From the UHGV virus genome UHGV-1351569: a stretch of DNA of 64,000 bases. One strand, 5' to 3'. Shown in pieces: positions 9,297-63,650 of this stretch. The stretch comes from a virus. Each line of letters begins with the position of its first letter. The first letter of the stretch is position 1. The notes beneath the pieces are model-generated. The model saw only the letters and a program-made list of their open reading frames with translations. It made no database searches and was not told where the DNA came from. The translations under genes and the position numbers were made by a program.

Positions 9297-9330
9297 ACAA
9301 CTATCAACTGATACGGATTTGGAGAATAAA

Positions 9331-10300
9331 ATGAAAACTGTAACTATCAATAAGGGTATCTACTTCGGTAAAGAAATCTCTGGAACTTTTGAGCTCTTAG
9401 GCGAATGGTTCCCAGATAATGCTCCGGTAGATGCACAAGGAGATGGTAAAGTTTTTGTTGAAATTGACGGTAAACGTCGCGGTGTTTGGGTTTACAAATC
9501 AGATATTTCATATGATGGTGTAAAAGTTGAAGAAGTTAAAGAATCGTATGAAGATATGAAAACCCGCATTAATAAAAGATTTAATGTTATGGGAATGATG
9601 ACGAATGGTATTATTAATGGAAATATTCGTTCATTGATTATCTCTGGTGCAGCAGGTATTGGTAAAACGTATTCTTTAGATAAAGCTTTAAATAAAGCAA
9701 ATGATATTGGATACATTGAATATAAAAGCATTAATGGTAAAATCTCTGGTATTGGTCTTTATGAGCAGCTTTGGAATAATCGTGAAGAGAATTCTGTCCT
9801 TTTGATTGATGATGTGGATGTTTTCTCTGATATGGACATTCTTAATCTTCTAAAAGCTGCTCTGGACACTGGAGAGACCCGTAAAGTCTGCTGGAGCACG
9901 GCGTCTTCTTACTTAGAAGAAAAAGGCATTGAGCGTGAGTTTGAATTTAAAGGAACGATTGTTTTTATCACAAACGTTGACATTGACCGCGAATTAGACC
10001 GTGGTACTAAACTTGCCCCCACACTTACAAGCATTAGTGTCCCGCTCGGTTTATTTGGATTTAGGCGTTCACACTAATGAAGAAATTATGGTCAGGGTTG
10101 AAGATGTTATTCTTTCAACTGACATGATGCAAAAGCGCGGTCTTTCTGATGAAGAAACTTATAAAGCATTATCATGGATGAAAGTTAATGTTAATCGTTT
10201 ACGCAATGTTTCACTGCGTACTGCTCTTTATCTTGCTGACTTTATTATGACCGACAAAAACGGTTGGGAAGAAATTGCTGAGGTTACTCTTCTGAAATAA
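9331..10300 (+). pseudogene. AAA+ ATPase gene interrupted by a frameshift (N-part 9331-10077, C-part frame from 10001)
   Basis: Walker A GAAGIGKT, Walker B VLLIDDVD, sensor-1 TIVFITNVD in first frame; lid-like C-domain continues in the next frame; frames meet at a C5 run 10016-10020. Confidence 0.6.
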
Positions 10301-10389
10301 TTCATAAGAGGACTTCTATGACAAAAAGGCAGTTCAGAAATAGATTATATGGACTGCCATTAAAAAGATGACTAGAATTAAACTGGTGA

Positions 10390-10704
10390 ATGGAGGTAAT
10401 GATGTTATACTCAAAGGCTCGTGAAATTTACGAAACTAAAATTAAAGAAGCAGTATTTCAGTTCGCAACAACGATGCGATGGACAAATGATTGGGAGTAT
10501 TCAAAAAATCATAAGAAGCCCATGGTGACAAGAAAGGCTCATATGTTAGTGTTAATAGACCGTGAGCAGATTAAAGCCCGAGAAGCCCTCCAGAATCATA
10601 AAAAGGCTGCCTTTGAATGGTTTATGGATAACACTGCTCCTGAGACTAAGAAAGCAGTGAGCGCCTGGTTCAGTGGAAAAAATTGTGAAAGAAGTTTCTT
10701 TTAG
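10390..10704 (+). CDS. hypothetical protein, ~100 aa
   Basis: ggagg RBS; exact start among adjacent ATGs uncertain. Confidence 0.5.
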   Translation: MEVMMLYSKAREIYETKIKEAVFQFATTMRWTNDWEYSKNHKKPMVTRKAHMLVLIDREQIKAREALQNHKKAAFEWFMDNTAPETKKAVSAWFSGKNCERSFF

Positions 10705-10706
10705 TG

Positions 10707-10736
10707 GTTTACAAGACTGTTCCTCTGTGGTACTAT
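10707..10736 (+). promoter_or_regulatory. T4-type early promoter with conserved leader (PeSL-like cassette)
   Basis: GTTTAC, 18-bp spacer, TACTAT, leader acaactatcaactacggaggaacagaaaATG. Confidence 0.5.
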
Positions 10737-10764
10737 ACAACTATCAACTACGGAGGAACAGAAA

Positions 10765-11292
10765 ATGAACGCTAAAGATATTTTCAACTTGGTAAATTAC
10801 AACGATGGTAAATTTAAATCTGAAGCACAAAGCAAGTTCTTTAACGACATCTCAATCGGAGGTGAAATTACTGTTGATGGAGGACAAATTTACAAATCCC
10901 GTTGGAATTGGATCGTTATTATCGATGAGATTGGTATTGTAGAAATTTACAAGAATACGAATAAAAATCGTACATTACACTGGTCTCGTGATACTAATGA
11001 ACAGTACAAAAAGGATAAAGCATCTAAATTATCTCGTGTAACTCAAGAAGATATTGAGTTCATCAAGAAAGATATTTTAATGTATGATAACTTAATTGCT
11101 GAAGAGCAAGCTGTTATTGATAAATTTGACGAGATTAAAGCTTCTCGTGAAATTCCTGATTTTATGAAAGAATCAGTAAATGAACGATACTCTCTCATTT
11201 CAGAGCGTATTGAAACTTACAAAAAGCAAAGAGCTGAACGCCAAAATACTCTTCGGAAGTTTGAAGAACGGTTAAAGACGGTACTCGCATAA
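10765..11292 (+). CDS. hypothetical protein, 175 aa
   Basis: ORF downstream of conserved leader. Confidence 0.6.
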   Translation: MNAKDIFNLVNYNDGKFKSEAQSKFFNDISIGGEITVDGGQIYKSRWNWIVIIDEIGIVEIYKNTNKNRTLHWSRDTNEQYKKDKASKLSRVTQEDIEFIKKDILMYDNLIAEEQAVIDKFDEIKASREIPDFMKESVNERYSLISERIETYKKQRAERQNTLRKFEERLKTVLA

Positions 11293-11347
11293 CCGCTTTA
11301 TACCAAGGATGGTATAATGGTTCTAAGCCCTTTTAATTGAGATTGTT

Positions 11348-11752
11348 ATGAAACAGTTGATAATTAAAAGATTGAATTTATTGATATGTTGTTTATGTAT
11401 AGTAATTGCATATGGTTATTACGCAATTAATGATTATATGCATTATAAAGATTATGATGTTACTGTAGTTAATACCTTTACAGGAACTCAAGGAAAGGGG
11501 TCTAGTTTATCGTTTATTGCTGTATATGAACTCAAAGACGGTTATAGATTTAGCGAATATATTTCACCAGAGATGTATTCATCAATAGAAAAAGGCGATA
11601 ATATTACTGTAAGTTTACGTCCTTTCGACGTAAAACAGACATTGTTTGATAATATTGTTTGGTTCTTTGGAATGGTATTAGTTCAATCTGTATGCGGTGC
11701 TTATATAGTCTTTTCCATCATATTCTGCATATTTAGTAAAATTGAAAATTGA
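11348..11752 (+). CDS. hypothetical membrane protein, 134 aa
   Basis: N- and C-terminal hydrophobic helices. Confidence 0.55.
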   Translation: MKQLIIKRLNLLICCLCIVIAYGYYAINDYMHYKDYDVTVVNTFTGTQGKGSSLSFIAVYELKDGYRFSEYISPEMYSSIEKGDNITVSLRPFDVKQTLFDNIVWFFGMVLVQSVCGAYIVFSIIFCIFSKIEN

Positions 11753-12659: not shown

Positions 12660-13688
12660 ATGAAAACTCGTTCTCAAATTGAAGATATGGTTCGTAACGC
12701 CAGCTATACTCGTGATGTTATGACATTTTTGTGCCAAAATAATTTAGACCCTGATAAAGTTAATCGTGTTATTCATCACTTTAAGTATACGAATAGCAGT
12801 GAATGGGTGCGTAATTTTAGTAAAGCGGGGTATATTACACAAATGACTGCTCGTGAGCAGCTCACCGATTTCTGTAAAACTATTGATTATAAAAATCCTC
12901 TATTTGTTCAAGGCGTTGGTCAAAGTAAGGTCGATTTATCAACAGGATTTTTTAATCCAAATCATTATCGTATTGAATGGAGATTTATTGCTCTATTCCG
13001 TAAACAATTAAAGCAAATTTTGTCTACTGCTAGTCGATTAAAAGGTTCTGATATTAACTTAAAGAATCTGAAATTTGATGGTTATACTCTTCAGATGGAA
13101 GTAAGACCATTAAAAGAAAATAACAGAACTGCACGAATTAGCTTTAAACCTAATACAAAAAATTCTCTTTCAATTTGCGAATGCCTTAAATCGCAGTTGA
13201 CAGAAGCATTTAAGTATATGGATGTTGTTGCTGCTGTTCAGTCTAAGATTTCACAACATTTCGAACGATTTAAATTAGACACAACAACATATGAACTTGA
13301 TATGATCGTTTCATTTAAATATGAATTTTTGAGAAAGGACGAAGTTACACAAGAGAAAAAGCAAGAAGTGCAAGATAACTTAAATTTAAATTTATCCAAT
13401 TACTCATCAAACGATCCTAAATTTTGGATGTATAGTTCAGGTAATAAGGATGCATGGAAATTCAATAAAGTGAATTTTCTTCCTGTTGAAAATCCGAGTC
13501 TTAAACCTGTTGAAAAATGGCATGCAGATGCGATTGAGAAGTCTATCAAGGCAGTAGATGATGAACTCGTTAAAGCAACTAATGAAGTGCTAGAAGCTGA
13601 AAAGATGCTAGAAAAAGCTCAAGAAAAAGTCAAAAATCTCACGAAGCAACGTTCTAAACTGAACAATGCACTAAATGCACTGAACTAG
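12660..13688 (+). CDS. hypothetical protein, 342 aa, C-terminal coiled-coil tail (family member 2)
   Basis: N-terminus MKTRSQIEDM; C-terminal KAQEKVKNLTKQRSKLNNALNALN. Confidence 0.6.
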   Translation: MKTRSQIEDMVRNASYTRDVMTFLCQNNLDPDKVNRVIHHFKYTNSSEWVRNFSKAGYITQMTAREQLTDFCKTIDYKNPLFVQGVGQSKVDLSTGFFNPNHYRIEWRFIALFRKQLKQILSTASRLKGSDINLKNLKFDGYTLQMEVRPLKENNRTARISFKPNTKNSLSICECLKSQLTEAFKYMDVVAAVQSKISQHFERFKLDTTTYELDMIVSFKYEFLRKDEVTQEKKQEVQDNLNLNLSNYSSNDPKFWMYSSGNKDAWKFNKVNFLPVENPSLKPVEKWHADAIEKSIKAVDDELVKATNEVLEAEKMLEKAQEKVKNLTKQRSKLNNALNALN

Positions 13689-13718
13689 TTTACTTTACCA
13701 CAGGGATGTGGTATAATG
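13689..13718 (+). promoter_or_regulatory. T4-type early promoter
   Basis: GTTTAC, 18-bp spacer, TGgTATAAT. Confidence 0.5.
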
Positions 13719-17354: not shown

Positions 17355-17819
17355 TTGATATGGAGATGGGACATGATTACAGTAGATAAGTGGTTTAGAA
17401 TTAATCGTGCTGATAAAGGGCTGTGTAATTACTGGCCGGAACTTAGTGCAGGTACTGTCTTTAAAGTTCGTGAACTTGCAAAAGAATGCGAAGATGATAT
17501 AGAACCTGATACTGGAATTATTGAAATTGAACTTTCTGATGGAAAGATTATTAACATCTATGATAAGCCAATTACATATTGGTGCTTGTGGAATACCGAA
17601 TCAGTAGAAAATGGCGAAATTGAAGAAGTTGTAGAACGAGTTGATCAAGCTATTCATAAACCTAAAGCCGCTTTTCAAGGTGAACGCATTTCATATGCAT
17701 TATCTAAATCGGCGTTGAAAAAAGATATTGATGATTACGAAGGAAATTTAATGCAAGCCGCGGCAGAATATATTGAATGGCTTGAAACTCAAATTTCTTT
17801 TTCTGACCGAGCGTTTTAA
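17355..17819 (+). CDS. hypothetical protein, 154 aa (at the position where T4 carries pin)
   Basis: ORF from track; assignment to pin is positional only. Confidence 0.5.
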   Translation: MIWRWDMITVDKWFRINRADKGLCNYWPELSAGTVFKVRELAKECEDDIEPDTGIIEIELSDGKIINIYDKPITYWCLWNTESVENGEIEEVVERVDQAIHKPKAAFQGERISYALSKSALKKDIDDYEGNLMQAAAEYIEWLETQISFSDRAF

Positions 17820-17995
17820 TGAAAACCGAATTAATTTATACTGAAAAGTTAAATGGTGGTAAGGTTTGGAAACTTTTTATTAAAGGAAGTCCTACTGACC
17901 CTAATATGACCACTTGTATAGGAACTTATTCTCGTCCTACTAAAAAGATGATTCGACAATATAAGCGATTGCATCGAATGTTTTACAATACTTGA
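17819..17995 (+). CDS. hypothetical basic small protein, 58 aa (below track cutoff)
   Basis: Hand-translated; aATG overlaps upstream stop. Confidence 0.4.
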   Translation: MKTELIYTEKLNGGKVWKLFIKGSPTDPNMTTCIGTYSRPTKKMIRQYKRLHRMFYNT

Positions 17996-18510: not shown

Positions 18511-19044
18511 CAATTGAAAAAGAAATTGAAGGATTGATTCATAAAACTAATAAAGACCTTTTAAACGAGAATGCTAATAAAGATTCTCGTGTTTTTCCAA
18601 CTCAACGGGACCTTATGGCTGGTATTGTGTCTAAACACATTGCCAAAAATATGGTCCCGTCTTTTATTATGAAAGCGCATGAAAGCGGAATTATCCATTT
18701 CCATGATATTGATTATTCCCCTGCTCTTCCATTTACTAATTGCTGTTTAGTAGATTTAAAAGGAATGCTTGAAAACGGATTTAAGCTCGGTAATGCACAG
18801 ATTGAAACTCCTAAATCAATCGGCGTTGCTACTGCAATTATGGCACAAATTACTGCACAGGTTGCTTCCCACCAATATGGCGGAACGACTTTTGCGAATG
18901 TAGATAAAGTACTTTCTCCTTATGTTAAACGCACCTATGCAAAACATATTGAGGATGCAGAAAAATGGCAAATCGCTGATGCGTTGAATTATGCTCAATC
19001 CAAAACAGAAAAAGATGTCTATGATGCATTCCAGGCGTATGAGT
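18507..19044 (+). CDS. nrdD: anaerobic ribonucleotide reductase NrdD, exon 1
   Basis: Exon ends after gagT where P1 pairing augagu/gcucau with intron IGS is visible. Confidence 0.85.
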
Positions 19045-19254
19045 TAATTTAATTCAGGCTCATGTAAAACCGGTCTAAACGGGGAACCTCTCTAGTAGAC
19101 AATCCCGTGCTAAATGTTCTTTTGAACTAAATGCCTAACGACTAACCGTGATGAATGTAGCGGTGTAGAATAGAAGCTAATGCTATTCGAAACGGCCGGC
19201 ATCGAAAGATGAAGATATAGTCTAATCTGCATGGCGACATGCAGCAGTCATCTT

Positions 19255-19262
19255 GTATAAAT
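19255..19262 (+). promoter_or_regulatory. T4 late promoter core (TATAAATA) inside intron, upstream of endonuclease ORF
   Basis: Exact TATAAATA 30 nt upstream of the ORF ATG. Confidence 0.55.
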
Positions 19263-19292
19263 AAGATTATCTTATGAATACGAGGTGAAACA

Positions 19293-20063
19293 ATGAAATG
19301 GATAAAAAGACGTTGTACTAAAATAAAAGATAAAGACGCATTTACATACTTAGTTAAGTTTTCTAATGGCGACATTTATATCGGTTATAAAAAAGTTAGA
19401 ACAATTAAAAACAAGCCCACAAACTGGAAAACTTACACAACGTCATCTAAGTATATAAATGAACGCTTAAAAACTGATACACCTACTAAATGGATAATTT
19501 TAAAAACATTTGATAGTTATAAAGACGCATTAAAACATGAAGAAGAGGTCATACGTAAATATTTTTATAGCAAAAAATGTTTAAATAAATCCATAGGCGG
19601 TAAAAAGTTTTATAAGCATCCGGATACTGAAGAACATATTCAAAAATTAAGAGATGCTCATAAGGGTAAAGTGTTATCCGAATCTCATAAAAACAATATA
19701 AAATCTTCTGTAGCTGAATATTATGCTAAAAACGGAAGATCTAAGGAACATGTGCAAAATAATATCAATAGTCGAAAAAGTAAAAAACAAGTATCGATAA
19801 AGCTTAAAAATAAAACTTTTAGAAGTTTTAAAAAAGCGGCGGAATATTTAAATTGCACTGAAAGTGAAGTCGAAACTCATCCTCTTGTTTTGAGTATTAA
19901 GACTACTATTCATAAAGTTCCTGAATATGTGGTTGTTGACGGTATTAAGTATACGTCTTATATAGAAGCAGCTAAAGCGCTAAATTTTCATCCTAGCACT
20001 ATAAAAGAACGTTGCGTATCTATGGACTATCCAAATTTTGTTGTTTCATATAAACGGGCATGA
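19293..20063 (+). CDS. intron-encoded homing endonuclease (I-TevII-like)
   Basis: 256 aa ORF wholly inside the intron; size and position match T4 I-TevII. Confidence 0.8.
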   Translation: MKWIKRRCTKIKDKDAFTYLVKFSNGDIYIGYKKVRTIKNKPTNWKTYTTSSKYINERLKTDTPTKWIILKTFDSYKDALKHEEEVIRKYFYSKKCLNKSIGGKKFYKHPDTEEHIQKLRDAHKGKVLSESHKNNIKSSVAEYYAKNGRSKEHVQNNINSRKSKKQVSIKLKNKTFRSFKKAAEYLNCTESEVETHPLVLSIKTTIHKVPEYVVVDGIKYTSYIEAAKALNFHPSTIKERCVSMDYPNFVVSYKRA

Positions 20064-20077
20064 ATTTGCGACTCATG

Positions 20078-21369
20078 CCGAATATAATGATGAAGTAAAT
20101 ACACTTTTCAGCTCTAATGGACAAACGCCTTTTGTAACAATTACGTTTGGTACGGGAACTGACTGGACTGAACGAATGATTCAGAAAGCAATTCTGAAAA
20201 ATCGTATTAAAGGTCTTGGTCGCGATGGGATAACTCCTATTTTCCCTAAGCTTGTTATGTTCGTTGAAGAAGGTGTTAATCTTTATAAAGATGACCCGAA
20301 CTATGATATTAAACAGCTTGCTCTAGAGTGCGCAAGCAAAAGAATGTATCCTGACATCATTTCGGCTAAGAACAATAAAGCTATCACCGGTTCATCTATT
20401 CCTGTTTCTCCAATGGGTTGCCGCAGTTTCTTGAGCGTATGGAAAGATTCGACTGGTAATGAAATTCTTGATGGACGTAATAATCTTGGCGTTGTAACAC
20501 TGAATCTTCCTCGCATCGCGTTAGATTCTTATATTGGAACACAGTTCAATGAACAGAAATTTGCCGAATTGTTCAATGAACGAATGGATTTATGTTTTGA
20601 AGCTTTGATGTGTAGAATTAGTTCCTTAAAAGGAGTTAAAGCGACTGTTGCTCCTATTCTTTATCAAGAAGGTGCATTCGGGGTTCGTCTTAAACCAGAT
20701 GACGACATAATTGAGTTATTTAAAAACGGTAGAAGTTCAGTGTCTTTGGGATACATTGGTATTCACGAATTGAATATTCTTGTCGGTCGTGATATTGGGC
20801 AGGAAATTTTGACTAAAATGAATGCTCATCTTAAGCAGTGGACTGAAAGAACCGGTTTTGCTTTTAGTTTGTATTCTACACCTGCTGAAAACCTGTGCTA
20901 TCGCTTCTGTAAACTTGATACCGAAAAATATGGAAGTGTAAAGGATGTTACTGATAAAGGCTGGTACACTAACAGTTTCCATGTTTCAGTAGAAGAAAAT
21001 ATCACTCCGTTTGAAAAGATTTCTCGTGAAGCGCCATATCATTTCATTGCGACAGGTGGTCACATTTCTTATGTTGAACTTCCTGATATGAAAAATAACT
21101 TAAAAGGTCTTGAGGCTGTATGGGATTATGCTGCACAACATTTAGATTATTTTGGCGTTAACATGCCAGTAGATAAATGTTTTACGTGTGGAAGTACCCA
21201 TGAAATGACTCCTACTGAAAACGGGTTTGTTTGTTCTATTTGTGGAGAAACTGATCCTAAAAAGATGAACACAATAAGAAGAACTTGTGGTTATTTGGGA
21301 AATCCGAACGAACGTGGATTTAATCTTGGCAAAAATAAAGAAATCATGCATAGGGTTAAACACCAATGA
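20078..21369 (+). CDS. nrdD: anaerobic ribonucleotide reductase NrdD, exon 2
   Basis: In-frame continuation; C-terminal RRTCGYLG glycyl-radical motif; joined product about 609 aa. Confidence 0.85.
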
Positions 21370-33358: not shown

Positions 33359-33727
33359 ATGATTGAAATTACTCTTAAAAAACCTGAAGATTTTCTGAAA
33401 GTAAAAGAAACTTTGACTCGTATGGGAATTGCTAATAATAAAGATAAAGTTCTGTATCAGTCCTGTCATATTCTTCAGAAAAAAGGACTATACTATATCG
33501 TTCATTTTAAAGAAATGCTTCGTATGGATGGTCGTCAAGTTGAAATGACAGAAGAAGATGAAGTTCGTCGTGATTCGATTGCATGGTTGTTAGAAGATTG
33601 GGGACTGATTGAAATCGTTCCTGGTCAAAGAACTTTTATGAAAGATTTAACTAATAACTTCCGAGTTATTTCTTTTAAACAAAAACATGAATGGAAACTC
33701 GTTCCTAAATATACGATTGGTAATTAA
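33359..33727 (+). CDS. regA: translational repressor RegA
   Basis: 122 aa; matches recalled T4 RegA. Confidence 0.9.
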   Translation: MIEITLKKPEDFLKVKETLTRMGIANNKDKVLYQSCHILQKKGLYYIVHFKEMLRMDGRQVEMTEEDEVRRDSIAWLLEDWGLIEIVPGQRTFMKDLTNNFRVISFKQKHEWKLVPKYTIGN

Positions 33728-33728
33728 T

Positions 33729-33950
33729 ATGACTGCTATAACTCCACAAGAATACATGGCGTCTCTTAAAGAAAAATATAATCTTTCTGCAACAGAAACA
33801 CTTTTCGATTTACCAGAAAACCTTCAACTAAAATTTCAGGTAGAATTTCAAAAATTAATTCACCCAGAACAAAAACACTTTACTGCGGTCGTTAAGTCAA
33901 TTAATGCAGATGGAATGACAATTTTTCACCGACAAATAGTACTAATTTAA
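33729..33950 (+). CDS. hypothetical protein, 73 aa
   Basis: ATG at 33729 after regA stop; track start 33687 overlaps regA. Confidence 0.45.
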   Translation: MTAITPQEYMASLKEKYNLSATETLFDLPENLQLKFQVEFQKLIHPEQKHFTAVVKSINADGMTIFHRQIVLI

Positions 33951-33953
33951 GCA

Positions 33954-33973
33954 AGGGGCTTCGGCCCCTTATT
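33954..33973 (+). terminator. rho-independent terminator
   Basis: ggggc-ttcg-gcccc then ttattt. Confidence 0.55.
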
Positions 33974-34028: not shown

Positions 34029-36725
34029 ATGAAAGAATTTTATATCTCTATCGAAACAGTCGGAAATAACATTGTTGAACGTTATATTGATGAAAACGGA
34101 AAGGAACGTACTCGTGAAGTAGAATATCTTCCGACTATGTTTAGACATTGTAAGGAAGAGTCAAAATACAAAGACATCTATGGTAAAAATTGTGCTCCTC
34201 AAAAATTTCCATCAATGAAAGATGCACGAGATTGGATGAAGCGGATGGAAGACATCGGTCTCGAAGCTCTCGGTATGAACGATTTTAAACTCGCTTATAT
34301 CAGTGATACATATGGTTCAGAAATTGTTTATGACCGAAAATTTGTTCGTGTAGCTAACTGTGACATTGAGGTTACTGGTGATAAATTTCCTGACCCAATG
34401 AAAGCAGAATATGAAATTGATGCTATCACTCATTATGATTCAATTGACGATCGTTTTTATGTTTTCGACCTTTTGAATTCAATGTACGGTTCAGTATCAA
34501 AATGGGATGCAAAGTTAGCTGCTAAGCTTGACTGTGAAGGTGGTGATGAAGTTCCTCAAGAAATTCTTGACCGAGTAATTTATATGCCATTTGATAATGA
34601 GCGTGATATGCTCATGGAATATATTAATCTCTGGGAACAGAAACGACCTGCTATTTTTACTGGTTGGAATATTGAGGGATTTGACGTTCCGTATATCATG
34701 AATCGTGTTAAAATGATTCTAGGCGAACGCAGTATGAAACGTTTCTCTCCAATCGGTCGAGTAAAATCTAAACTAATTCAAAATATGTACGGCAGCAAAG
34801 AAATTTATTCTATTGATGGCGTATCTATTCTTGATTATTTAGATTTGTACAAGAAATTCGCTTTTACTAATTTGCCGTCATTCTCTTTGGAATCAGTTGC
34901 TCAACATGAAACCAAAAAAGGTAAATTGCCGTACGATGGTCCTATTAATAAACTTCGTGAGACTAATCATCAACGATACATTAGTTATAACATCATTGAC
35001 GTAGAATCAGTTCAAGCAATTGATAAAATTCGTGGGTTTATCGATCTAGTTTTAAGTATGTCTTATTACGCTAAAATGCCTTTTTCTGGTGTAATGAGTC
35101 CTATTAAAACTTGGGATGCTATTATTTTTAACTCGTTGAAAGGTGAACATAAGGTTATTCCTCAACAAGGTTCGCACGTTAAGCAGAGTTTTCCAGGCGC
35201 ATTTGTGTTTGAACCTAAACCGATTGCTCGTCGATACATTATGAGTTTTGACTTGACGTCTCTGTATCCTAGCATTATTCGTCAGGTTAACATTAGTCCT
35301 GAGACTATTCGTGGACAGTTCAAAGTTCATCCAATTCATGAATATATCGCAGGAACAGCTCCTAAGCCAAGTGATGAATATTCTTGTTCTCCGAATGGAT
35401 GGATGTATGATAAGCACCAAGAAGGTATTATTCCAAAGGAAATCGCTAAAGTATTTTTCCAGCGTAAAGACTGGAAAAAGAAAATGTTCGCGGAAGAAAT
35501 GAATGCCGAAGCTATTAAAAAGATTATTATGAAAGGTGCAGGGTCTTGCTCAACTAAACCAGAAGTTGAACGATATGTTAAGTTCAATGATGATTTCTTA
35601 AACGAATTATCGAATTACACCGAATCTGTTCTTAATAGTCTGATCGAAGAATGTGAAAAAGCAGCTACACTTGCTAACACAAATCAGCTGAACCGTAAAA
35701 TTCTTATCAACAGTCTTTATGGTGCTCTTGGTAATATTCATTTCCGTTACTATGATTTGCGAAATGCTACTGCTATCACAATTTTTGGTCAAGTCGGTAT
35801 TCAGTGGATTGCTCGTAAAATTAATGAATATCTGAATAAAGTATGCGGAACTAATGGTGAAGATTTCATCGCAGCAGGTGATACTGATTCAGTATATGTT
35901 TGTGTAGATAAAGTTATTGAAAAAGTAGGTCTTGACCGCTTTAAAGAACAAAATGATTTAGTTGAATTCATGAATCAGTTTGGTAAGAAAAAGATGGAAC
36001 CTATGATTGATGTTGCATATCGTGAGTTATGTGATTATATGAATAACCGCGAGCATCTGATGCATATGGACCGTGAAGCTATTTCTTGCCCTCCGCTTGG
36101 TTCAAAGGGTGTTGGTGGATTTTGGAAAGCGAAAAAACGTTATGCTCTGAACGTTTATGATATGGAAGATAAGCGATTTGCTGAACCGCATCTAAAAATC
36201 ATGGGTATGGAAACTCAGCAGAGTTCAACGCCAAAAGCAGTACAAGAAGCTCTCGAAGAAAGTATTCGTCGCATTCTTCAGGAAGGCGAAGAGTCTGTCC
36301 AAGAATACTATAAGAACTTTGAGAAAGAATATCGTCAACTTGATTATAAAGTTATTGCTGAAGTAAAAACTGCGAACGATATAGCGAAATATGATGATAA
36401 AGGTTGGCCAGGGTTTAAATGCCCGTTCCATATTCGTGGTGTACTAACTTATCGTCGAGCTGTTAGTGGTTTAGGTGTAGCTCCAATTTTGGATGGAAAT
36501 AAGGTAATGGTTCTTCCGTTACGTGAGGGAAATCCATTTGGTGACAAGTGCATTGCTTGGCCATCGGGTACGGAACTTCCAAAAGAAATTCGTTCTGACG
36601 TACTGTCTTGGATTGACTACTCAACTTTGTTCCAAAAATCGTTTGTTAAACCACTTGCGGGCATGTGTGAATCGGCAGGTATGGACTATGAGGAAAAAGC
36701 TTCGTTAGACTTCCTGTTTAGCTGA
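34029..36725 (+). CDS. 43: DNA polymerase gp43 (family B, with 3'-5' exonuclease)
   Basis: 898 aa; exo motif VANCDIEV, polymerase motifs SLYPS and YGDTDS. Confidence 0.97.
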   Translation: MKEFYISIETVGNNIVERYIDENGKERTREVEYLPTMFRHCKEESKYKDIYGKNCAPQKFPSMKDARDWMKRMEDIGLEALGMNDFKLAYISDTYGSEIVYDRKFVRVANCDIEVTGDKFPDPMKAEYEIDAITHYDSIDDRFYVFDLLNSMYGSVSKWDAKLAAKLDCEGGDEVPQEILDRVIYMPFDNERDMLMEYINLWEQKRPAIFTGWNIEGFDVPYIMNRVKMILGERSMKRFSPIGRVKSKLIQNMYGSKEIYSIDGVSILDYLDLYKKFAFTNLPSFSLESVAQHETKKGKLPYDGPINKLRETNHQRYISYNIIDVESVQAIDKIRGFIDLVLSMSYYAKMPFSGVMSPIKTWDAIIFNSLKGEHKVIPQQGSHVKQSFPGAFVFEPKPIARRYIMSFDLTSLYPSIIRQVNISPETIRGQFKVHPIHEYIAGTAPKPSDEYSCSPNGWMYDKHQEGIIPKEIAKVFFQRKDWKKKMFAEEMNAEAIKKIIMKGAGSCSTKPEVERYVKFNDDFLNELSNYTESVLNSLIEECEKAATLANTNQLNRKILINSLYGALGNIHFRYYDLRNATAITIFGQVGIQWIARKINEYLNKVCGTNGEDFIAAGDTDSVYVCVDKVIEKVGLDRFKEQNDLVEFMNQFGKKKMEPMIDVAYRELCDYMNNREHLMHMDREAISCPPLGSKGVGGFWKAKKRYALNVYDMEDKRFAEPHLKIMGMETQQSSTPKAVQEALEESIRRILQEGEESVQEYYKNFEKEYRQLDYKVIAEVKTANDIAKYDDKGWPGFKCPFHIRGVLTYRRAVSGLGVAPILDGNKVMVLPLREGNPFGDKCIAWPSGTELPKEIRSDVLSWIDYSTLFQKSFVKPLAGMCESAGMDYEEKASLDFLFS

Positions 36726-36760: not shown

Positions 36761-36842
36761 ATATAAGTAATATAAATCTATACTTATGAAAAAGAGATGA
36801 TTCTGGACCTTTTGGATTCATTAAAAATTTTTTCACAAAACT

Positions 36843-36872
36843 GTTTACATCTCTGTTCTTCCATGGTACTAT
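36843..36872 (+). promoter_or_regulatory. T4-type early promoter with conserved leader (PeSL-like cassette)
   Basis: GTTTAC, 18-bp spacer, TACTAT, leader acaactatcaactacggaggaacagaaaATG. Confidence 0.5.
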
Positions 36873-36900
36873 ACAACTATCAACTACGGAGGAACAGAAA

Positions 36901-41142: not shown

Positions 41143-42570
41143 GTGGTAGAAATTATTCTTTCTCATCTCATATTTGATCAAGCTTATTTTTCAAAAGTTT
41201 GGCCATATATGGATTCAGAATATTTTGAAAGTGGTCCAGCTAAAAATACATTCAAATTAATTAAATCTCATGTCAATGAGTATCATAGCGTTCCATCTAT
41301 TAATGCGTTAAATGTTGCATTAGAAAATAGTTCATTTACTGAAACAGAATATTCTGGTGTAAAAACACTTATTTCAAAACTGGCTGATTCTCCGGAAGAC
41401 CACAGCTGGTTAGTAAAAGAAACAGAAAAATATGTTCAGCAAAGGGCGATGTTTAATGCTACGTCTAAAATAATCGAAATTCAAACTAATGCTGAGCTTC
41501 CTCCGGAAAAACGAAATAAGAAAATGCCAGATGTAGGTGCTATTCCTGACATCATGCGCCAAGCATTATCAATTTCATTTGATAGCTACGTTGGTCATGA
41601 TTGGATGGATGACTACGAAGCACGTTGGCTATCTTATATGAATAAAGCTCGTAAGGTTCCATTTAAACTCAAAATTCTAAATAAAATTACTAAAGGCGGA
41701 GCTGAAACTGGAACACTGAACGTTTTAATGGCTGGTGTTAACGTTGGTAAGTCATTAGGATTGTGTTCATTGGCAGCAGATTATTTGCAGCTCGGACACA
41801 ATGTTCTTTACATTTCCATGGAAATGGCAGAAGAAGTCTGTGCTAAGCGTATTGACGCTAATATGCTCGATGTTTCTCTTGATGACATTGATGATGGGCA
41901 TATTTCTTACGCTGAATATAAAGGAAAAATGGAAAAATGGCGTGAGAAATCTACTCTCGGTCGTTTAATCGTTAAACAGTATCCTACTGGTGGAGCAGAC
42001 GCTAATACATTTCGTTCTCTTTTGAACGAATTGAAGCTCAAGAAGAATTTTGTTCCAACAATCATTATTGTTGACTATCTGGGTATTTGTAAATCTTGCC
42101 GCATCAGAGTTTATTCAGAAAATAGTTACACAACTGTTAAAGCTATCGCAGAAGAATTACGTGCTCTGGCTGTTGAAACCGAAACTGTTCTTTGGACCGC
42201 AGCACAGGTTGGTAAACAAGCTTGGGATTCTTCTGATGTTAACATGAGCGATATTGCAGAATCTGCCGGTCTTCCAGCAACAGCCGATTTTATGCTTGCG
42301 GTCATTGAAACCGAGGAGCTAGCAGCTGCTGAACAACAACTAATTAAGCAAATCAAATCACGATATGGCGATAAGAATAAGTGGAATAAGTTTTTGATGG
42401 GTGTTCAAAAAGGAAATCAGAAATGGGTAGAAATTGAACAAGATTCTACTCCAACTGAAGTGAACGAAGTAGCAGGTTCACAACAGATTCAGGCTGAGCA
42501 GAATCGCTATCAAAGAAATGAATCTACTCGAGCCCAGTTAGATGCTTTGGCGAATGAATTAAAATTTTAG
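41143..42570 (+). CDS. 41: replicative DNA helicase gp41
   Basis: 475 aa; Walker A GVNVGKS; matches recalled T4 gp41; GTG start. Confidence 0.95.
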   Translation: MVEIILSHLIFDQAYFSKVWPYMDSEYFESGPAKNTFKLIKSHVNEYHSVPSINALNVALENSSFTETEYSGVKTLISKLADSPEDHSWLVKETEKYVQQRAMFNATSKIIEIQTNAELPPEKRNKKMPDVGAIPDIMRQALSISFDSYVGHDWMDDYEARWLSYMNKARKVPFKLKILNKITKGGAETGTLNVLMAGVNVGKSLGLCSLAADYLQLGHNVLYISMEMAEEVCAKRIDANMLDVSLDDIDDGHISYAEYKGKMEKWREKSTLGRLIVKQYPTGGADANTFRSLLNELKLKKNFVPTIIIVDYLGICKSCRIRVYSENSYTTVKAIAEELRALAVETETVLWTAAQVGKQAWDSSDVNMSDIAESAGLPATADFMLAVIETEELAAAEQQLIKQIKSRYGDKNKWNKFLMGVQKGNQKWVEIEQDSTPTEVNEVAGSQQIQAEQNRYQRNESTRAQLDALANELKF

Positions 42571-42599
42571 TTTACAAGCTGACGAGACTATGGTATAGT
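42570..42599 (+). promoter_or_regulatory. T4-type early promoter
   Basis: GTTTAC, 18-bp spacer, TGgTATAGT. Confidence 0.5.
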
Positions 42600-42628
42600 A
42601 GTCTTGTTGGTTAAATGAGGAGATTGTT

Positions 42629-44988: not shown

Positions 44989-45185
44989 ATTAACCCAACC
45001 AAAGCAAATGCTAAATCTACGAATGTATCAAGAGTAACTACTGGAATATTAATACCATGCGCAATAGCTACTGGCGATAAAACAAAATTCCAAAGTAAAA
45101 TTCCTATCATAGCAGAAATAGTAAAAGCTATACGTTTTTTATTACCTTTGATGGCATTAACAAGTGCCATTAATTTTTGTACCAT
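44985..45185 (-). CDS. small hydrophobic protein, 66 aa, opposite strand
   Basis: Only ORF in the 61-56 gap; AAGGAGGA RBS 5 nt before ATG on minus strand; two hydrophobic segments. Confidence 0.55.
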   Translation of the reverse strand: MVQKLMALVNAIKGNKKRIAFTISAMIGILLWNFVLSPVAIAHGINIPVVTLDTFVDLAFALVGLI

Positions 45186-45196
45186 ATGTCCTCCTT

Positions 45197-45222
45197 ATTG
45201 CTTTATATATTTATTGTATAAT
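45197..45222 (+). promoter_or_regulatory. MotA-dependent middle promoter upstream of gene 56
   Basis: TGCTTTA 45199-45205, 11-bp spacer, TATAAT 45217-45222. Confidence 0.55.
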
Positions 45223-45256
45223 TAATCTACTAACCCATGAATTGAAAGGAAAAATA

Positions 45257-45775
45257 ATGGCTTACTTTAACGAATGTTCACAACTGATTGAAGGCGCTGA
45301 TAAAGCTCAAAATGAATATTGGGATATTCTCGGCGATGAAAAAGACCCACTACAGGTTATGCTTGATATGCAGAAATCTCTGCAGGTTCGTTTAGCTAAA
45401 GATAAACCTGAATATAACCGTCATCCTGATGATTTGGCTACCGCAGGTGAAGTTGTTGATTGGCTGCGCAATCAGAAAGATTATATTGACGATGAATTCC
45501 GTGAACTTCTGACTTCTCTTGGTGGTATGAGTAATGGTGAAAAAGACGCATCTGCTGTATGGAAACCTTGGAAGTCGCAGCATGGTGAACGTCGTGAAAC
45601 TCTGATTACTGATTTGTCTCCGCAAGACCAGTTAGAAATTAAATTTGAAATGATTGATATTCTTCATTTCGTTCTGAACATGTTCCAAGGTCTCGGTCTT
45701 ACGGCTGAAGAAATCTTTAAACTTTATTATCTAAAAAATGCTGAAAACTTCGCTCGTCAAGACAGAGGTTATTAA
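45257..45775 (+). CDS. 56: dCTPase/dUTPase gp56
   Basis: 172 aa from ATG 45257; close match to recalled T4 gp56. Confidence 0.9.
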   Translation: MAYFNECSQLIEGADKAQNEYWDILGDEKDPLQVMLDMQKSLQVRLAKDKPEYNRHPDDLATAGEVVDWLRNQKDYIDDEFRELLTSLGGMSNGEKDASAVWKPWKSQHGERRETLITDLSPQDQLEIKFEMIDILHFVLNMFQGLGLTAEEIFKLYYLKNAENFARQDRGY

Positions 45776-53445: not shown

Positions 53446-53478
53446 GTTTACTTCCTCGGTTAGTTGTGGTATTATAAT
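53446..53478 (+). promoter_or_regulatory. T4-type early promoter
   Basis: GTTTAC, 18-bp spacer, TATTATAAT. Confidence 0.5.
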
Positions 53479-53502
53479 ACCATAGCTACTGAGGATAATA
53501 AA

Positions 53503-54000
53503 ATGAAAATTTATCGTGTTGAATCATCGTTTAGTATTCTTGATTATGAAGATGCTATAACAATACGTCGAAATCTTTGTGTTCAAATAACACCGTACAG
53601 GAGTATAATAGATTCATGGAGCGAAGAGTGGCTATTACACGTAGGTTATGACAGACCTAATTTTATGCATCATAACGATAATAAAAGAATTCCTTTACCA
53701 CACGAAGATAAACTATTAGTTAAAAACGCTAATATAGTAATTAATACTAAGTTCAAGAAAGATTATGTTGGAGTAGAATATCATATTCCAGGATGGTTTA
53801 TAGCTCTTTATCATTTTGCTTTCGCTAGTGAATATGATATGATGAGATGGTTCACACGAGAAGAGCGGGAAGAATTATCTTCTAAAGGATTTTATCTCGC
53901 TGTATACGAAGTTCCTGAAGATGAAGTTATCATTGGCGGGCACCAAGTAATGTTCCGCAAATCGCATGCTGAACTCATAGATTTTATTGAAATGAGATAA
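53503..54000 (+). CDS. hypothetical protein, 165 aa
   Basis: ATG at 53503 after gaggataataaa RBS; track start 53464 lies within promoter. Confidence 0.55.
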   Translation: MKIYRVESSFSILDYEDAITIRRNLCVQITPYRSIIDSWSEEWLLHVGYDRPNFMHHNDNKRIPLPHEDKLLVKNANIVINTKFKKDYVGVEYHIPGWFIALYHFAFASEYDMMRWFTREEREELSSKGFYLAVYEVPEDEVIIGGHQVMFRKSHAELIDFIEMR

Positions 54001-54002
54001 TT

Positions 54003-54542
54003 ATGAAATTTAATTATAATCCTGAATACACACCAAATCCGGTAGCTAAACTGATTGATTTTGATGTTGTAAGCACTTATGTATGCCCTGTTAAACCACT
54101 GGAAATTAAGGAACCTACTATGACTACCGCTATTGAAATCGGCAAAATCTACAAACTGGCTGAAACTGAAATTAAAACTACTGAACTAAATTTGGGTTAT
54201 AAAGCATTGACTAATGTTTTTGGTGAAGGCGAGTTTGTGGTTAAAAGCTTTTCAAAAAGTAACTGGCATGATAAGAATAAAGCTTACGTGATTCGAGTGC
54301 ACCGTTTAGATAATGATGAAGTAATTAAAACTATAGTTTTTGAAGCAGAGTTCATCCTCTTTCAAGAATGCGATCCTACTGACCTTCTAACTCGTGCGGT
54401 AGCTATCAAGACTCCATTTATTTCGGTCTGTGGTTGGGTAACAGACCAATGGATTGAAGATGGTGTTGAACTTCTGAACGTTGTTCATGCAGGTGATTTT
54501 AGTGTAGTACCTCGTAGTGCGGTGGTAGCTATTTTAAATTAA
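54003..54542 (+). CDS. hypothetical protein, 179 aa (paralog of next gene)
   Basis: C-terminal CGWVTDQWIEDGVELLNVV resembles CGYITDQWVEDGVKLYNVV of the next ORF. Confidence 0.6.
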   Translation: MKFNYNPEYTPNPVAKLIDFDVVSTYVCPVKPLEIKEPTMTTAIEIGKIYKLAETEIKTTELNLGYKALTNVFGEGEFVVKSFSKSNWHDKNKAYVIRVHRLDNDEVIKTIVFEAEFILFQECDPTDLLTRAVAIKTPFISVCGWVTDQWIEDGVELLNVVHAGDFSVVPRSAVVAILN

Positions 54543-54544
54543 TA

Positions 54545-54574
54545 GTTTACAAACTCTTGGGACCAGAGTATAAT
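54545..54574 (+). promoter_or_regulatory. T4-type early promoter
   Basis: GTTTAC, 18-bp spacer, TATAAT bracketed by gggacc/ggtccc inverted repeat. Confidence 0.5.
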
Positions 54575-54618
54575 GGTCCCGTGGAGTATAAAATCTTTTT
54601 AACAAGTGAGAGATAACT

Positions 54619-55107
54619 ATGATTATTAATATTGGTGAAATTGCTCGTGTATCTGATAAATCCCGTTCTAAAGCAGCAGGAAAATTGGTTGAAATTGTAA
54701 GCATTCAGCTTAAACACGGTGTTAAAGATGAAGATTCTGAAGTAAAAGTGCGTATCATTCCTAAAGATGGAAAGTCTAAACCTCAGTTTGGCTATGTTCG
54801 TGCGAAATTTCTTGAGTCTGCGTTTTTGAAAGCTGTTCCTGCTAAAGGAATTAAAACGATTGATACTTCGCATGTAGGTGTAGACTTTAAGTGGAAACTC
54901 GGTCAATCTATTAAGTTCATTGCTCCTTGTGAATTTAAATTCATCCCAGATGATGGAAAGGCTGTTTATACTCGTGCTATGTGTGGATACATTACCGATC
55001 AATGGGTAGAAGACGGTGTTAAGTTGTACAACGTGGTATTTTTAGGAACATACAAAGTCATTCCTGAAAGTTGGATTAAACACTATAGAAATGCGCTCTA
55101 TGCATAA
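54619..55107 (+). CDS. motB: MotB-position protein, 162 aa
   Basis: 162 aa as T4 MotB and located between dexA and the cef/goF region; assignment positional. Confidence 0.5.
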   Translation: MIINIGEIARVSDKSRSKAAGKLVEIVSIQLKHGVKDEDSEVKVRIIPKDGKSKPQFGYVRAKFLESAFLKAVPAKGIKTIDTSHVGVDFKWKLGQSIKFIAPCEFKFIPDDGKAVYTRAMCGYITDQWVEDGVKLYNVVFLGTYKVIPESWIKHYRNALYA

Positions 55108-56960: not shown

Positions 56961-57011
56961 GCTTTATGATTACCGGAGTATAATATTCCCGAAACCAAAC
57001 GAGGATAAGTG

Positions 57012-58829
57012 ATGATTAAGAATGAAATTAAAATTCTGAGCGATATTGAACATATCAAAAAGCGTAGCGGCATGTACATTGGTTCTTCTGCTAATGAAAT
57101 GCATGAGCGCTTTCTGTTTGGTAAATGGGAAAGTGTTCAGTATGTACCTGGTCTTGTTAAGCTTATTGATGAAATTATCGATAACTCAGTAGATGAAGGT
57201 ATTCGTACTAAGTTTAAATTCGCGAATAAAATTAATGTTACTATTAAAAACAATCAAGTAACAGTTGAAGATAACGGTCGTGGTATTCCACAAGCGATGG
57301 TTAAAACACCTACTGGTGAAGAAATTCCTGGTCCTGTTGCCGCCTGGACTATTCCAAAAGCAGGTGGTAACTTTGGTGATGATAAAGAACGCGTCACTGG
57401 CGGTATGAACGGTGTTGGTTCTAGTTTAACTAACATTTTTTCTGTGATGTTTGTCGGTGAAACTGGTGATGGTCAAAATAATATTGTAGTTCGTTGTTCA
57501 AATGGCATGGAAAATAAATCGTGGGAAGATATTCCTGGAAAATGGAAAGGAACTCGCGTTACTTTCATTCCTGATTTTATGTCATTTGAAACTAATGAGC
57601 TATCTCAGGTTTATCTTGACATTACACTAGATCGTCTCCAGACACTTGCAGTAGTTTATCCTGATATTCAATTTACCTTTAATGGTAAAAAGGTTCAGGG
57701 TAATTTTAAGAAATATGCACGTCAATATGATGAGCATGCTATCGTTCAAGAACAAGAAAACTGTTCTATTGCGGTCGGTCGTTCACCTGATGGTTTTCGT
57801 CAATTAACGTACGTCAATAACATTCATACTAAGAATGGTGGCCATCATATTGACTGTGTTATGGATGATATTTGTGAAGACCTTATTCCACAAATCAAAC
57901 GCAAGTTCAAAATTGATGTAACTAAAGCACGTGTTAAAGAATGTTTGACTATCGTTATGTTTGTTCGTGATATGAAAAACATGCGATTTGATTCTCAAAC
58001 TAAAGAGCGTTTGACTTCTCCATTTGGTGAAATTCGCAGTCATATTCAGCTTGATGCTAAAAAGATTTCACGTGCTATTCTAAATAATGAAGCAATTTTA
58101 ATGCCAATTATTGAAGCTGCCTTGGCTCGTAAATTGGCGGCAGAAAAAGCAGCAGAAACTAAAGCAGCTAAAAAGGCTTCTAAAGCTAAGGTTCATAAAC
58201 ATATTAAAGCGAATCTTTGTGGTAAAGATGCTGACACTACTCTTTTCTTGACTGAGGGTGATTCTGCTATCGGATATCTTATTGATGTTCGTGATAAAGA
58301 ACTTCATGGTGGTTATCCATTACGTGGTAAAGTTCTCAACAGTTGGGGTATGTCATATGCTGATATGCTTAAAAACAAAGAACTGTTTGATATTTGCGCA
58401 ATCACTGGATTAGTTCTTGGTGAAAAAGCCGAAAACTTGAATTATCATAATATCGCAATTATGACCGATGCTGACCACGATGGTCTAGGAAGCATTTATC
58501 CTTCTCTGCTCGGATTTTTTAGTAATTGGCCAGAATTGTTTGAACAAGGAAGAATTCGCTTTGTCAAAACTCCTGTAATCATCGCTCAGGTCGGTAAAAA
58601 ACAAGAATGGTTTTATACAGTCGCTGAATATGAGAGTGCCAAAGATGCTCTACCTAAACATAGCATCCGTTATATTAAAGGACTTGGCTCTTTGGAAAAA
58701 TCTGAATATCGTGAGATGATTCAAAACCCAGTATATGATGTTGTTAAACTTCCTGAGAACTGGAAAGAGCTTTTTGAAATGCTCATGGGAGATAATGCTG
58801 ACCTTCGTAAAGAATGGATGAGCCAGTAG
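57012..58829 (+). CDS. 39: DNA topoisomerase II ATPase subunit gp39, unsplit form
   Basis: 605 aa from ATG 57012 (gagga RBS); GHKL ATPase N-domain; C-terminal ~130 aa equals recalled T4 gp60 C-terminus, so one ORF covers T4 39 plus 60. Confidence 0.9.
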   Translation: MIKNEIKILSDIEHIKKRSGMYIGSSANEMHERFLFGKWESVQYVPGLVKLIDEIIDNSVDEGIRTKFKFANKINVTIKNNQVTVEDNGRGIPQAMVKTPTGEEIPGPVAAWTIPKAGGNFGDDKERVTGGMNGVGSSLTNIFSVMFVGETGDGQNNIVVRCSNGMENKSWEDIPGKWKGTRVTFIPDFMSFETNELSQVYLDITLDRLQTLAVVYPDIQFTFNGKKVQGNFKKYARQYDEHAIVQEQENCSIAVGRSPDGFRQLTYVNNIHTKNGGHHIDCVMDDICEDLIPQIKRKFKIDVTKARVKECLTIVMFVRDMKNMRFDSQTKERLTSPFGEIRSHIQLDAKKISRAILNNEAILMPIIEAALARKLAAEKAAETKAAKKASKAKVHKHIKANLCGKDADTTLFLTEGDSAIGYLIDVRDKELHGGYPLRGKVLNSWGMSYADMLKNKELFDICAITGLVLGEKAENLNYHNIAIMTDADHDGLGSIYPSLLGFFSNWPELFEQGRIRFVKTPVIIAQVGKKQEWFYTVAEYESAKDALPKHSIRYIKGLGSLEKSEYREMIQNPVYDVVKLPENWKELFEMLMGDNADLRKEWMSQ

Positions 58830-58858
58830 TTTACTTTACCACAAGGATGTGGTATAAT
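58829..58858 (+). promoter_or_regulatory. T4-type early promoter
   Basis: GTTTAC, 18-bp spacer, TGgTATAAT; near-duplicate of promoter at 13689. Confidence 0.5.
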
Positions 58859-63174: not shown

Positions 63175-63381
63175 ATGTTTACTACAGCTGAATTAAAACG
63201 AGCAAAAGCTAAGAAAGGGCAAGGAAAATATAAAGCTGAATTAGTTAAAGAACTTCAGTTTGCTGAGGCTGAATTGAATTCAATGATTATTCAAAATGCT
63301 CCAGAAACTGAAATTGCTCTTAAACGTATTGCGAATAAGTGTCTTCGTGATGCAATCGTCGATCTTTTAGCGGATTATTGA
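63175..63381 (+). CDS. hypothetical protein, 68 aa
   Basis: ATG 63175 after conserved leader; track TTG start 63163 unlikely. Confidence 0.5.
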   Translation: MFTTAELKRAKAKKGQGKYKAELVKELQFAEAELNSMIIQNAPETEIALKRIANKCLRDAIVDLLADY

Positions 63382-63650
63382 GTAAAATGAAATTTAAATT
63401 TTATTACGCTAAACATAAAATAACTGATGAGTTTGTGTCAGTTGAATATTCTAGCGATGATGAAGGTATGATTTATACTCGCTTAGGGTTATCGCACTGG
63501 GAGTCTGATACGCCTTATTTTTCAACTCCTGAAGAAATTACACGTTTAGTTAATGGTCATATGAATGACCACTGGAATGTAATTCTTTCAGATAGTCTTA
63601 AAGCGGCTATTAATAGTAATGAAATGAAAATCGCTGAGATTGAACTATGA
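63378..63650 (+). CDS. hypothetical protein, 90 aa
   Basis: ATGA overlap. Confidence 0.5.
   Translation: MSKMKFKFYYAKHKITDEFVSVEYSSDDEGMIYTRLGLSHWESDTPYFSTPEEITRLVNGHMNDHWNVILSDSLKAAINSNEMKIAEIEL

Follow-up and report, generated by a model that had tools for sequence, protein, structure and literature searches.

The six repeated cassettes in this genome, one of them at 36843-36900, are, judged by their sequences, T4 early promoters with putative RegB-sensitive leaders, and those that stand beside variable ORFs are PeSLs, an already known kind of element. The most economical reading is that they are regulatory units that double as passive homology, and nothing points to a dedicated mobility machine. 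We consider it probable that these T-even units, which start early transcription and translation, also serve as passive, portable homology for accessory ORFs. All positions refer to the window, i.e., the whole 64,000-nucleotide stretch of virus genome UHGV-1351569 that was analyzed, and cassettes are named by the first position of their -35 hexamer (Table 1).

The source phage is T2/T4-like and belongs to the genus Tequatrovirus. Its best relatives, among them T2, RB27 and ECO4, are 96-97% identical to it, and no database record identical to the window was found. In the window, early transcription runs along the + strand. Gene order runs vs.7, regB, tk, rI, nrdC.11-nrdC, 49, nrdD/G, 55, a-gt, 47-44, regA and 43 (34029-36725), followed by ORF83, imm.1, imm, 42, uvsX, 41, 61, 56, soc and modA/B, and then by dda, dexA, motB, cef, 39, rIIA, rIIB, denB and the ndd region.

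Several loci in this gene order differ from one or more of the comparators T4, T2, AR1 and T6. Gene 39 (topoisomerase II large subunit; 57009-58829) is a single 606-aa ORF, as in T2, at a locus without the T4 insertion of gene 60, mobA and 60.1; T4 is 1117 bp longer there. A dam methyltransferase gene is absent between gene 61 and gene 56 (44989-45260), an interval that is 899 bp longer in T4 and 1417 bp longer in T2 than in the window. For AR1 and T6 no indel relative to the window was called at this locus and neither annotates dam there, so that both appear to lack dam as well. The nrdD gene contains a group I intron (19013-20090; Rfam RF00028, 75 bits) with a homing-endonuclease ORF (19293-20063; phrog_314), and a 1047-bp block is missing here from T2, AR1 and T6. 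Between regA and gene 43, an 87-aa ORF (33687-33950; phrog_3826, no assigned function) that is missing from T4, T2, AR1 and T6 is followed by a UUCG hairpin (33953-33970), with no adjoining early promoter. A 137-bp segment at 17811-17947, which overlaps a small ORF (17819-17995), is likewise missing from all four comparators.

Table 1. Positions of the cassettes, their parts and the neighboring genes and terminators in the window
Feature	Start	End	Strand	Remarks
regB (RegB endoribonuclease)	1534	1995	+	annotation transfer from vB_Eco_NR1 and T4; behind early promoter 1477
UUCG-tetraloop terminator after nrdC.11	9218	9237	+	directly upstream of cassette 9267
Cassette 9267, type B leader	9245	9330	+	exact GGAGAATAAAA at 9321-9331; predicted to drive nrdC.10
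nrdC.10 (AAA-like NTPase family)	9331	10300	+	conserved; split by +1 frameshift near 10016
Cassette 10707, type A leader	10689	10764	+	leader identical to that of 36843; predicted to drive nrdC.8
nrdC.8	10765	11292	+	conserved, syntenic in genus and beyond
Intrinsic terminator closing gene 43	36738	36755	+	7-bp stem, UCCG loop, T-run; conserved in T4, AR1
A/T-rich UP-like tract AAAAATTTTTTCACAAAACT of cassette 36843	36821	36842	+	common to 9267, 55132, 63111 (72-84% pairwise)
Early promoter core of cassette 36843	36843	36872	+	orthologue is the T4 promoter at T4 27080, upstream of imm.1
-35 GTTTAC of cassette 36843	36843	36848	+	followed by 15-nt gap
TGGTACTAT of cassette 36843	36864	36872	+	hexamer TACTAT at 36867-36872
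Type A leader of cassette 36843	36873	36900	+	start region ACAACTATCAAC, then SD/putative RegB site, up to ATG; predicted unstructured
ORF83 (phrog_18567, no assigned function)	36901	37152	+	variable cargo; then directly imm.1 SD, ATG at 37165
Cassette 55132, degenerate, between motB and cef	55110	55204	+	-35 ATATAC; longer type B leader, exact GGAGAATAAAA; T4 6630 same sequence
ORF89 (phrog_3720)	55205	55474	+	variable cargo, slot 55132
Cassette 63111, type B leader, downstream of denB	63089	63174	+	T4 orthologue 167086
ORF68 (63175-63381) and next ORF (63378-63650)	63175	63650	+	PST ORF269 and ORF268
Cassette 63836, type A leader	63818	63893	+	predicted to drive ndd.4-like ORF (starts 63894, cut by window end); T4 orthologue 166807

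The cassette at 36843-36900 reads GTTTAC-atctctgttcttcca-TGGTACTAT-acaactatcaactacggaggaacagaaa, followed by ATG, and its sigma-70 register at 36844-36872 is TTTACA-17-TACTAT with a TG extension. The initial annotation had put 18 bp between GTTTAC and TGGTACTAT. The true gap is 15 nt, and the literal pattern GTTTAC-N18-TGGTACTAT has no relevant match in the window; it is the distance from GTTTAC to the TACTAT hexamer that is 18 nt, or 17 nt in the TTTACA/TACTAT register. The six intervals that had been given do each begin at the -35 hexamer and end immediately before the ATG, except that the copy said to start at 55140 had to be shifted to 55132, where its alignment begins with a degenerate -35 (ATATAC). 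The same ATATAC is present in T4.

That near-identical modules recur at these six sites was borne out, far above chance. In the self-comparison of the window that had been suggested, all six fell within the top direct-repeat family, D1, which has seven copies of 84 nt (repeat family D1/D4). When the window was searched for GTTTAC-N{13,19}-TGGTAYWAT, the form with N15 gave 11 exact matches, all on the + strand, against an expectation of 0.02, and 0 of 100 dinucleotide-preserving shuffles reached 11 matches. A weight matrix trained on 17 clear sites and scanned across the window found 19 early-type promoters, every one of them on the + strand. The notion that the cassettes are chance or low-complexity A/T-rich sequence, with no real repeat family, has in its favor the A/T-richness of the genome and the simple sequence of the UP tract. 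Against it, the copies extend over 84-89 nt with 61-85% identity, the strand bias is 19 to 0, and orthologues occur in T4 and hundreds of genomes. We regard the notion as vanishingly improbable, and as refuted by the shuffle statistics together with the orthology.

Orthologous cassettes are present in T4 at all six junctions (T4 55384, 53943, 27080, 6630, 167086 and 166807, in the order of the window sites), and T4 carries one further cassette upstream of motA. An 89-nt cassette query matched 3234 places in 546 phage records, nearly all of them Tequatrovirus, i.e., about 5.9 per genome. The T4 orthology and the roughly six copies per genome in 546 records indicate that the cassettes are fixed landmarks of the genus and not moving elements. 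Two GenBank records, U76612 and L13089, mark -35/-10 signals in matching T4 sequence. Because the T4 record AF158101 has no annotated promoter features, identification of the T4 promoters rests on sequence orthology and these two small records; a literature search yielded no usable genome-wide T4 transcription-start data.

T4 early promoters, also called 'uber' promoters, combine UP, -35, TGn and -10 elements with extra conserved positions, and they prevail over host promoters in the competition for unmodified sigma-70 polymerase (Hinton, 2010; PMC2988021). The form expected of a T4-type early promoter, with a -35 near GTTTAC/TTGACA, a spacer of 17 ± 1 nt and a -10 TAnnnT behind TGn, is the one seen at 36844-36872. 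The window copies share with them the -35 GTTTAC, the TGn-extended -10, the A/T-rich upstream tract, the orientation with early genes and the extra conserved positions. They differ in nothing substantive, although the six represent one sub-type (TACTAT -10 plus ACAACTATCAAC) of the 19 and the -35 at 55132 is weak. By analogy with the T4 orthologues, the promoters would be active in the source phage, with transcription presumably starting at the corresponding position. The UP-like tract, the GTTTAC -35, TGGTACTAT and the conserved start region would then recruit unmodified host sigma-70 polymerase immediately after infection.

The six copies form a distinct subfamily among the 19 early-type promoters, with TGGTACTAT as their -10. 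Over the first 13 nt past the -10 (ACAACTATCAACT), mean identity was 83% in the six but 34% in the other 13, and for the upstream tract AAAATTTTTTCACAAAAC the values were 59% and 37%. UP-like tracts of the AAAATTTTTTCACAAAAC type are found at 9267, 36843, 55132 and 63111, and weaker forms at 10707 and 63836. The promoter spacers are 87% identical between 10707 and 63836 and 73% identical between 36843 and 63836, while three copies have the very same 13-nt start region. To judge from these alignments, the paralogy of the copies exceeds what function requires, since they share spacer and start-region positions that have no known role. In addition, the cassette upstream of imm.1 in T4 joins a type A spacer (AAGACTGTTCTTCCA) to a type B leader, where the window has a type A leader, and this chimerism indicates exchange between copies.

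The six copies belong to one subfamily of paralogous repeats and stand at fixed orthologous positions in T4-like genomes. Given the highly active recombination of T-even phages, their 60-90 nt of shared sequence by gene starts could act as passive, portable homology, through which small accessory ORFs might be swapped, inserted or lost without loss of expression, as in the published PeSL idea. Alternatively, the cassettes might be regulatory only, their likeness reflecting selection for promoter strength and RegB/S1 recognition, and the turnover nearby being the ordinary microhomology gain and loss of any T-even junction. Consistent with this second reading, every consensus element has a known function; it does not account well for non-functional positions being common to paralogues, or for cassettes that are chimeric between genomes. 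We consider a purely regulatory role possible but rather doubtful.

Two further pairs of early promoters in the window are paralogous including the spacer, i.e., 13686-13717 with 58827-58858 (97% over 32 nt) and 6491-6528 with 42570-42607 (84% over 38 nt). Their likeness goes beyond the consensus, suggesting that copy-to-copy exchange is not confined to the six-member subfamily.

Both of the leader endings that had been described were found. Type A leaders are 28 nt long and end in ...CGGAGGAACAGAAAATG (...ATCAACTACGGAGGAACAGAAAATG) at 10707, 36843 and 63836; type B leaders, which end in ...TTGGAGAATAAAATG (...ATCAACTGATACGGATTTGGAGAATAAAATG), measure 34 nt at 9267 and at 63111 and are longer at 55132. 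The RegB/S1 target is an 11-nt single-stranded sequence, GGAGRAYARAA, with the T4 consensus GGAGAAUAAAA (Durand et al., 2006; PMC1702504). All three type B copies (9267, 55132 and 63111) match this consensus exactly (11/11), as GGAGAATAAAA. The three type A copies have GGAGGAACAGA (36888-36898 in the 36843 cassette), which contains GGAGG and agrees at 8/11 consensus positions. A G at position 5, as in GGAGG, is stimulatory for RegB cleavage; in T4, the nrdC.8 SD, which is of type A, is cleaved moderately by RegB, and the motB.2 GGAU site is also cleaved (PMC1702504). The T4 nrdC.8 leader is near-identical to the 36843 leader, with one base different.

The leaders had MFE values of -0.5 to -6 kcal/mol (z ≥ -1.1), folding no better than shuffles, and the RegB/S1 sites were predicted to be single-stranded. 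An Rfam scan of the cassettes found no RNA family in any of them. A structured leader RNA or riboswitch was rejected on both counts. The putative sites resemble known RegB/S1 sites (PMC1702504) in being intergenic, single-stranded GGAG SD sequences followed by an A-rich tract, and regB itself is in the window; they differ in that type A agrees at only 8/11 positions and its T4 counterpart nrdC.8 is only moderately cut. From the T4 orthologues, cleavage of these leaders by RegB would be expected in the source phage. The promoters would produce an unstructured leader of about 20-35 nt in which the GGAG SD is embedded in the RegB/S1 recognition sequence. With the SD placed within that site, translation of the downstream gene would begin immediately, and RegB of the phage would afterwards inactivate the mRNA.

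Stem-loops are a less regular companion of the cassettes than had been thought. The initial annotation placed them usually just after a UUCG-tetraloop terminator, which is directly true of only one in six (9267). The terminator of gene 43 lies 88 nt upstream of the 36843 promoter, and a weak hairpin (36796-36822) precedes its -35. At 10707, 55132, 63111 and 63836 there was no G+C-rich terminator within 140 nt. At 10707 a weak A/U hairpin (AAAGAAGTTTCTTT) immediately precedes the -35, and no convincing stem-loop was seen at 55132, 63111 or 63836. A clear stem-loop accompanies only two of the six copies. Two early promoters that had not been listed, at 5679 and 46144, do follow UUCG terminators. 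A separate family of near-identical UUCG-tetraloop hairpins (AAGGGCTTCGGCCCTT) follows genes at 23435, 27072, 31781, 33953, 56942, 62223 and 62452. Several of these are not followed by a T-run, and may therefore be RNA-stability or processing hairpins rather than terminators.

The slot between gene 43 and imm.1, behind the 36843 cassette, is polymorphic. The ORF83 allele was covered in 31 of 522 related records (6%). In about 60% of the sampled records the slot holds an unrelated ORF of similar length (the AR1 ar1_049 type), and in about 30%, including T4, T6 and PST, it holds no ORF. When alleles were aligned, homology stopped after ATCAACTAC in the leader and resumed at the imm.1 ATG, and in three alleles the left breakpoint fell exactly after ATCAACTAC. 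A breakpoint of this precision, next to a start region conserved well past known promoter needs, could suggest integron-like site-specific exchange, in which a phage protein cuts or pairs ACAACTATCAAC/leader to capture ORF cassettes; a helper protein has been raised as an idea by Arbiol et al. (PMC2839356). However, the right-hand junctions vary by slot and lie at ordinary start codons, the crossover point varies by event (UP tract, leader or ATG), the annotations examined list no integrase-like gene in association with the cassettes, and short homology suffices for T4 recombination (PMC2839356). Because the junction positions differ between events, we judge a dedicated site-specific mechanism to be very unlikely.

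Like integron cassettes and phage morons, the slots carry small accessory ORFs at defined intergenic sites, with or beside their own expression signals. Unlike integrons, they have no integrase and no attC-like folded site, and they differ from morons in that the repeat conserved here is the flanking regulatory sequence itself. As to the recombination pathway at the slots, we infer that exchange at the cassettes is most simply general homologous or microhomology recombination.

A tblastn search with ORF83 found 31 Tequatrovirus records and, at 54% identity, seven Dhakavirus records. In Dhakavirus IME08 the homologue (54% amino acid identity; L017:2400-2722) occupies a different slot, after rI.-1, and is immediately preceded there by a UUCG terminator, GTTTAC...TGATACTAT, and a leader of the form CTATCAACTA...GAGGAG. 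The ORF83 family therefore goes together with this kind of cassette in a second genus and at a different locus, and its occurrence behind like cassettes in different slots of two genera counts against a purely regulatory role. A bolder proposal would make the TGGTACTAT/ACAACTATCAAC subfamily (6-7 copies per Tequatrovirus genome) more than a promoter variant, namely a privileged exchange platform, with the start region/leader as a specific joint for recombination that a phage factor might recognise, and with ORF families such as ORF83 hopping between slots and genera (Tequatrovirus g43-imm.1 vs Dhakavirus rI.-1). We think this improbable.

The genes just downstream of the cassettes had all been proposed as candidate mobile cargo. 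This stands for ORF83, ORF89 and ORF68 but not for nrdC.10, nrdC.8 and ndd.4: across about 500 records, universal conservation and synteny of the downstream genes fails to hold at three of the sites. ORF89, in the 55132 slot, is intact in about 261 of 509 Tequatrovirus records (about 51%); T4 and T6 keep the cassette and an ORF89 remnant with a 200-bp internal deletion. ORF68, in the 63111 slot, is present in about 118 of 506 records (about 23%). Here ORF68 lies with the next ORF in a 440-bp block that has AATAAAATG and AATGAAATG at its ends and is missing from T4, while RB59 has neither ORF and the e112 type keeps only the second. Comeau et al. (2014; PMC4122927) use the corresponding PST ORF268/269 as an example in their Fig. 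6A. A Pfam search of the small cargo ORFs gave no match, and in PHROGs they fall only in families without assigned function.

The region of nrdC.10 and nrdC.8 is kept by nearly the whole genus and beyond, 495 of about 507 Tequatrovirus records covering at least 80% of 9000-11500 and other genera having homologues at 77-80% identity, so these two genes are not variable cargo. The 10707 (nrdC.8) and 63836 (ndd.4) slots were conserved in every genome examined, the ndd.4 region being colinear in all five of REP4, T4, PST, e112 and RB59. In the window, nrdC.10 comprises two ORFs (9331-10077 and 10001-10300), with an extra C in a C-run (GCCCCCAC vs T4 GCTCCAC); either nrdC.10 is truly a pseudogene here or the homopolymer was misread in sequencing.

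The 9267 slot takes extra cassette-flanked ORFs in three relatives. In T2 the insert consists of a promoter, a 486-bp ORF and a second terminator, with the UP tract directly repeated over 26 nt on either side; in UGKSEcP1 two cassettes enclose two ORFs, and GGRGAATAAAATGAAAACT flanks the insert; and in MLF4 a 201-bp ORF stands between two cassettes. The direct repeats that flank the T2 and UGKSEcP1 inserts are 19-26 nt long. Three independent inserts in the nrdC.10 slot, each bracketed by two cassettes and two of them flanked by direct repeats of cassette sequence, are not readily explained if the cassettes are regulatory only.

The initial annotation pointed to the proposal that such cassettes drive modular gene shuffling, to which a census of breakpoints lends no general support. 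We compared the window with T4 (whole), T2, AR1 and T6 using DP-chained alignments and collected indels and replacements of ≥40 bp. There were 28 distinct events, of which four (14%) had an end inside an early-promoter cassette. Since about 19 of about 130 gene junctions (15%) carry a cassette, this is the level expected by chance (P = 0.60). For the six-member subfamily, the count was 3/28 (P = 0.14), or 4/29 if the T2 insert is counted (P = 0.04), a weak enrichment. Many of the other indels are homing-endonuclease insertions (mobA to mobD, segA, segF and segH).

Junctions at the three variable slots show 8-9 nt of microhomology and fall in the leader, the SD or the ATG, not between two long cassettes. 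The loss of ORF89 in T4 is the internal 200-bp deletion, with 4-8 nt of microhomology. A 998-bp block containing motB.2 and motB.1 is missing from T2 (L001:40940-41175, compared with window 53446-54619). This deletion begins about 30 nt within motB.2 and stops 12 nt before the -35 of the motB promoter; as it ends inside an ORF and before a -35, it lies near two cassettes but is not a crossover between them.

In favor of a purely regulatory role, 24 of the 28 indels fell away from any cassette, with the 14% at cassettes matching their 15% share of junctions; the T4 ORF89 loss and the T2 loss of motB.1/motB.2, which ends outside homologous cassette sequence, point the same way. Against this, in the comparison with T4 alone an indel borders three of the six subfamily members but none of the other 13 early promoters (Fisher p = 0.02). 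Like the paralogy and the bracketed inserts, this favors regulatory units with a second role as homology; the cassettes probably contribute passively, as patches of homology, and do not amount to a dedicated system for mobility.

The PeSL label that had been attached to the cassettes is right. PeSLs were described in the T-even pair PST/T4 as a composite of an AT-rich tract, a TTTACW-N17-TAYWAT promoter, an SD and a start codon (Comeau et al., 2014; PMC4122927). They have also been published for phi1/RB49 (Arbiol et al., 2010; PMC2839356), and cassette-to-cassette deletion circles were reported for RB49 and phi1 by inverse PCR. The definition asks for likeness between copies over roughly 100 bp and for a stem-loop, in or beside the promoter, that could terminate or attenuate transcription coming from upstream; recombination between flanking copies would give deletions or mini-circles, of which the cassette-ORF-cassette arrangements in relatives, with direct repeats at the T2 and UGKSEcP1 inserts, would be an indirect sign. 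The window cassettes have the published make-up, repeated over about 60-90 nt from the AT-rich tract through the early promoter and SD to the ATG, beside ORFs that differ among close relatives. They fit TTTACW-N17-TAYWAT, the slot downstream of denB is the published PST ORF268/269 example, and ORFs flanked by two cassettes occur in relatives. They differ from PeSLs in that a convincing stem-loop is present at only two of the six copies, three of the six downstream genes are conserved, each variable ORF block in the window has a cassette on one side only, and the breakpoint census showed no general indel enrichment at cassettes. Adjoining ORFs vary among relatives at the 36843, 55132, 63111 and 9267 slots, but not for nrdC.8 or ndd.4. 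The published PeSL interpretation therefore holds for three cargo ORFs and one slot, and not for nrdC.10, nrdC.8 or ndd.4.

What is added here is a check of the published hypothesis at population scale (about 500 genomes), which opens no new question. Its outcome is that the slots are truly polymorphic, yet most indels fall outside early-promoter cassettes as a class. The main value of the cassettes lies in annotation: they mark putative immediate-early, RegB-limited transcription units of a T-even phage, and they flag the slots g43-imm.1, motB-cef, denB-ndd and nrdC.11-nrdC.10, which hold strain-specific accessory ORFs. These ORFs are plausible host-takeover or anti-defence genes.
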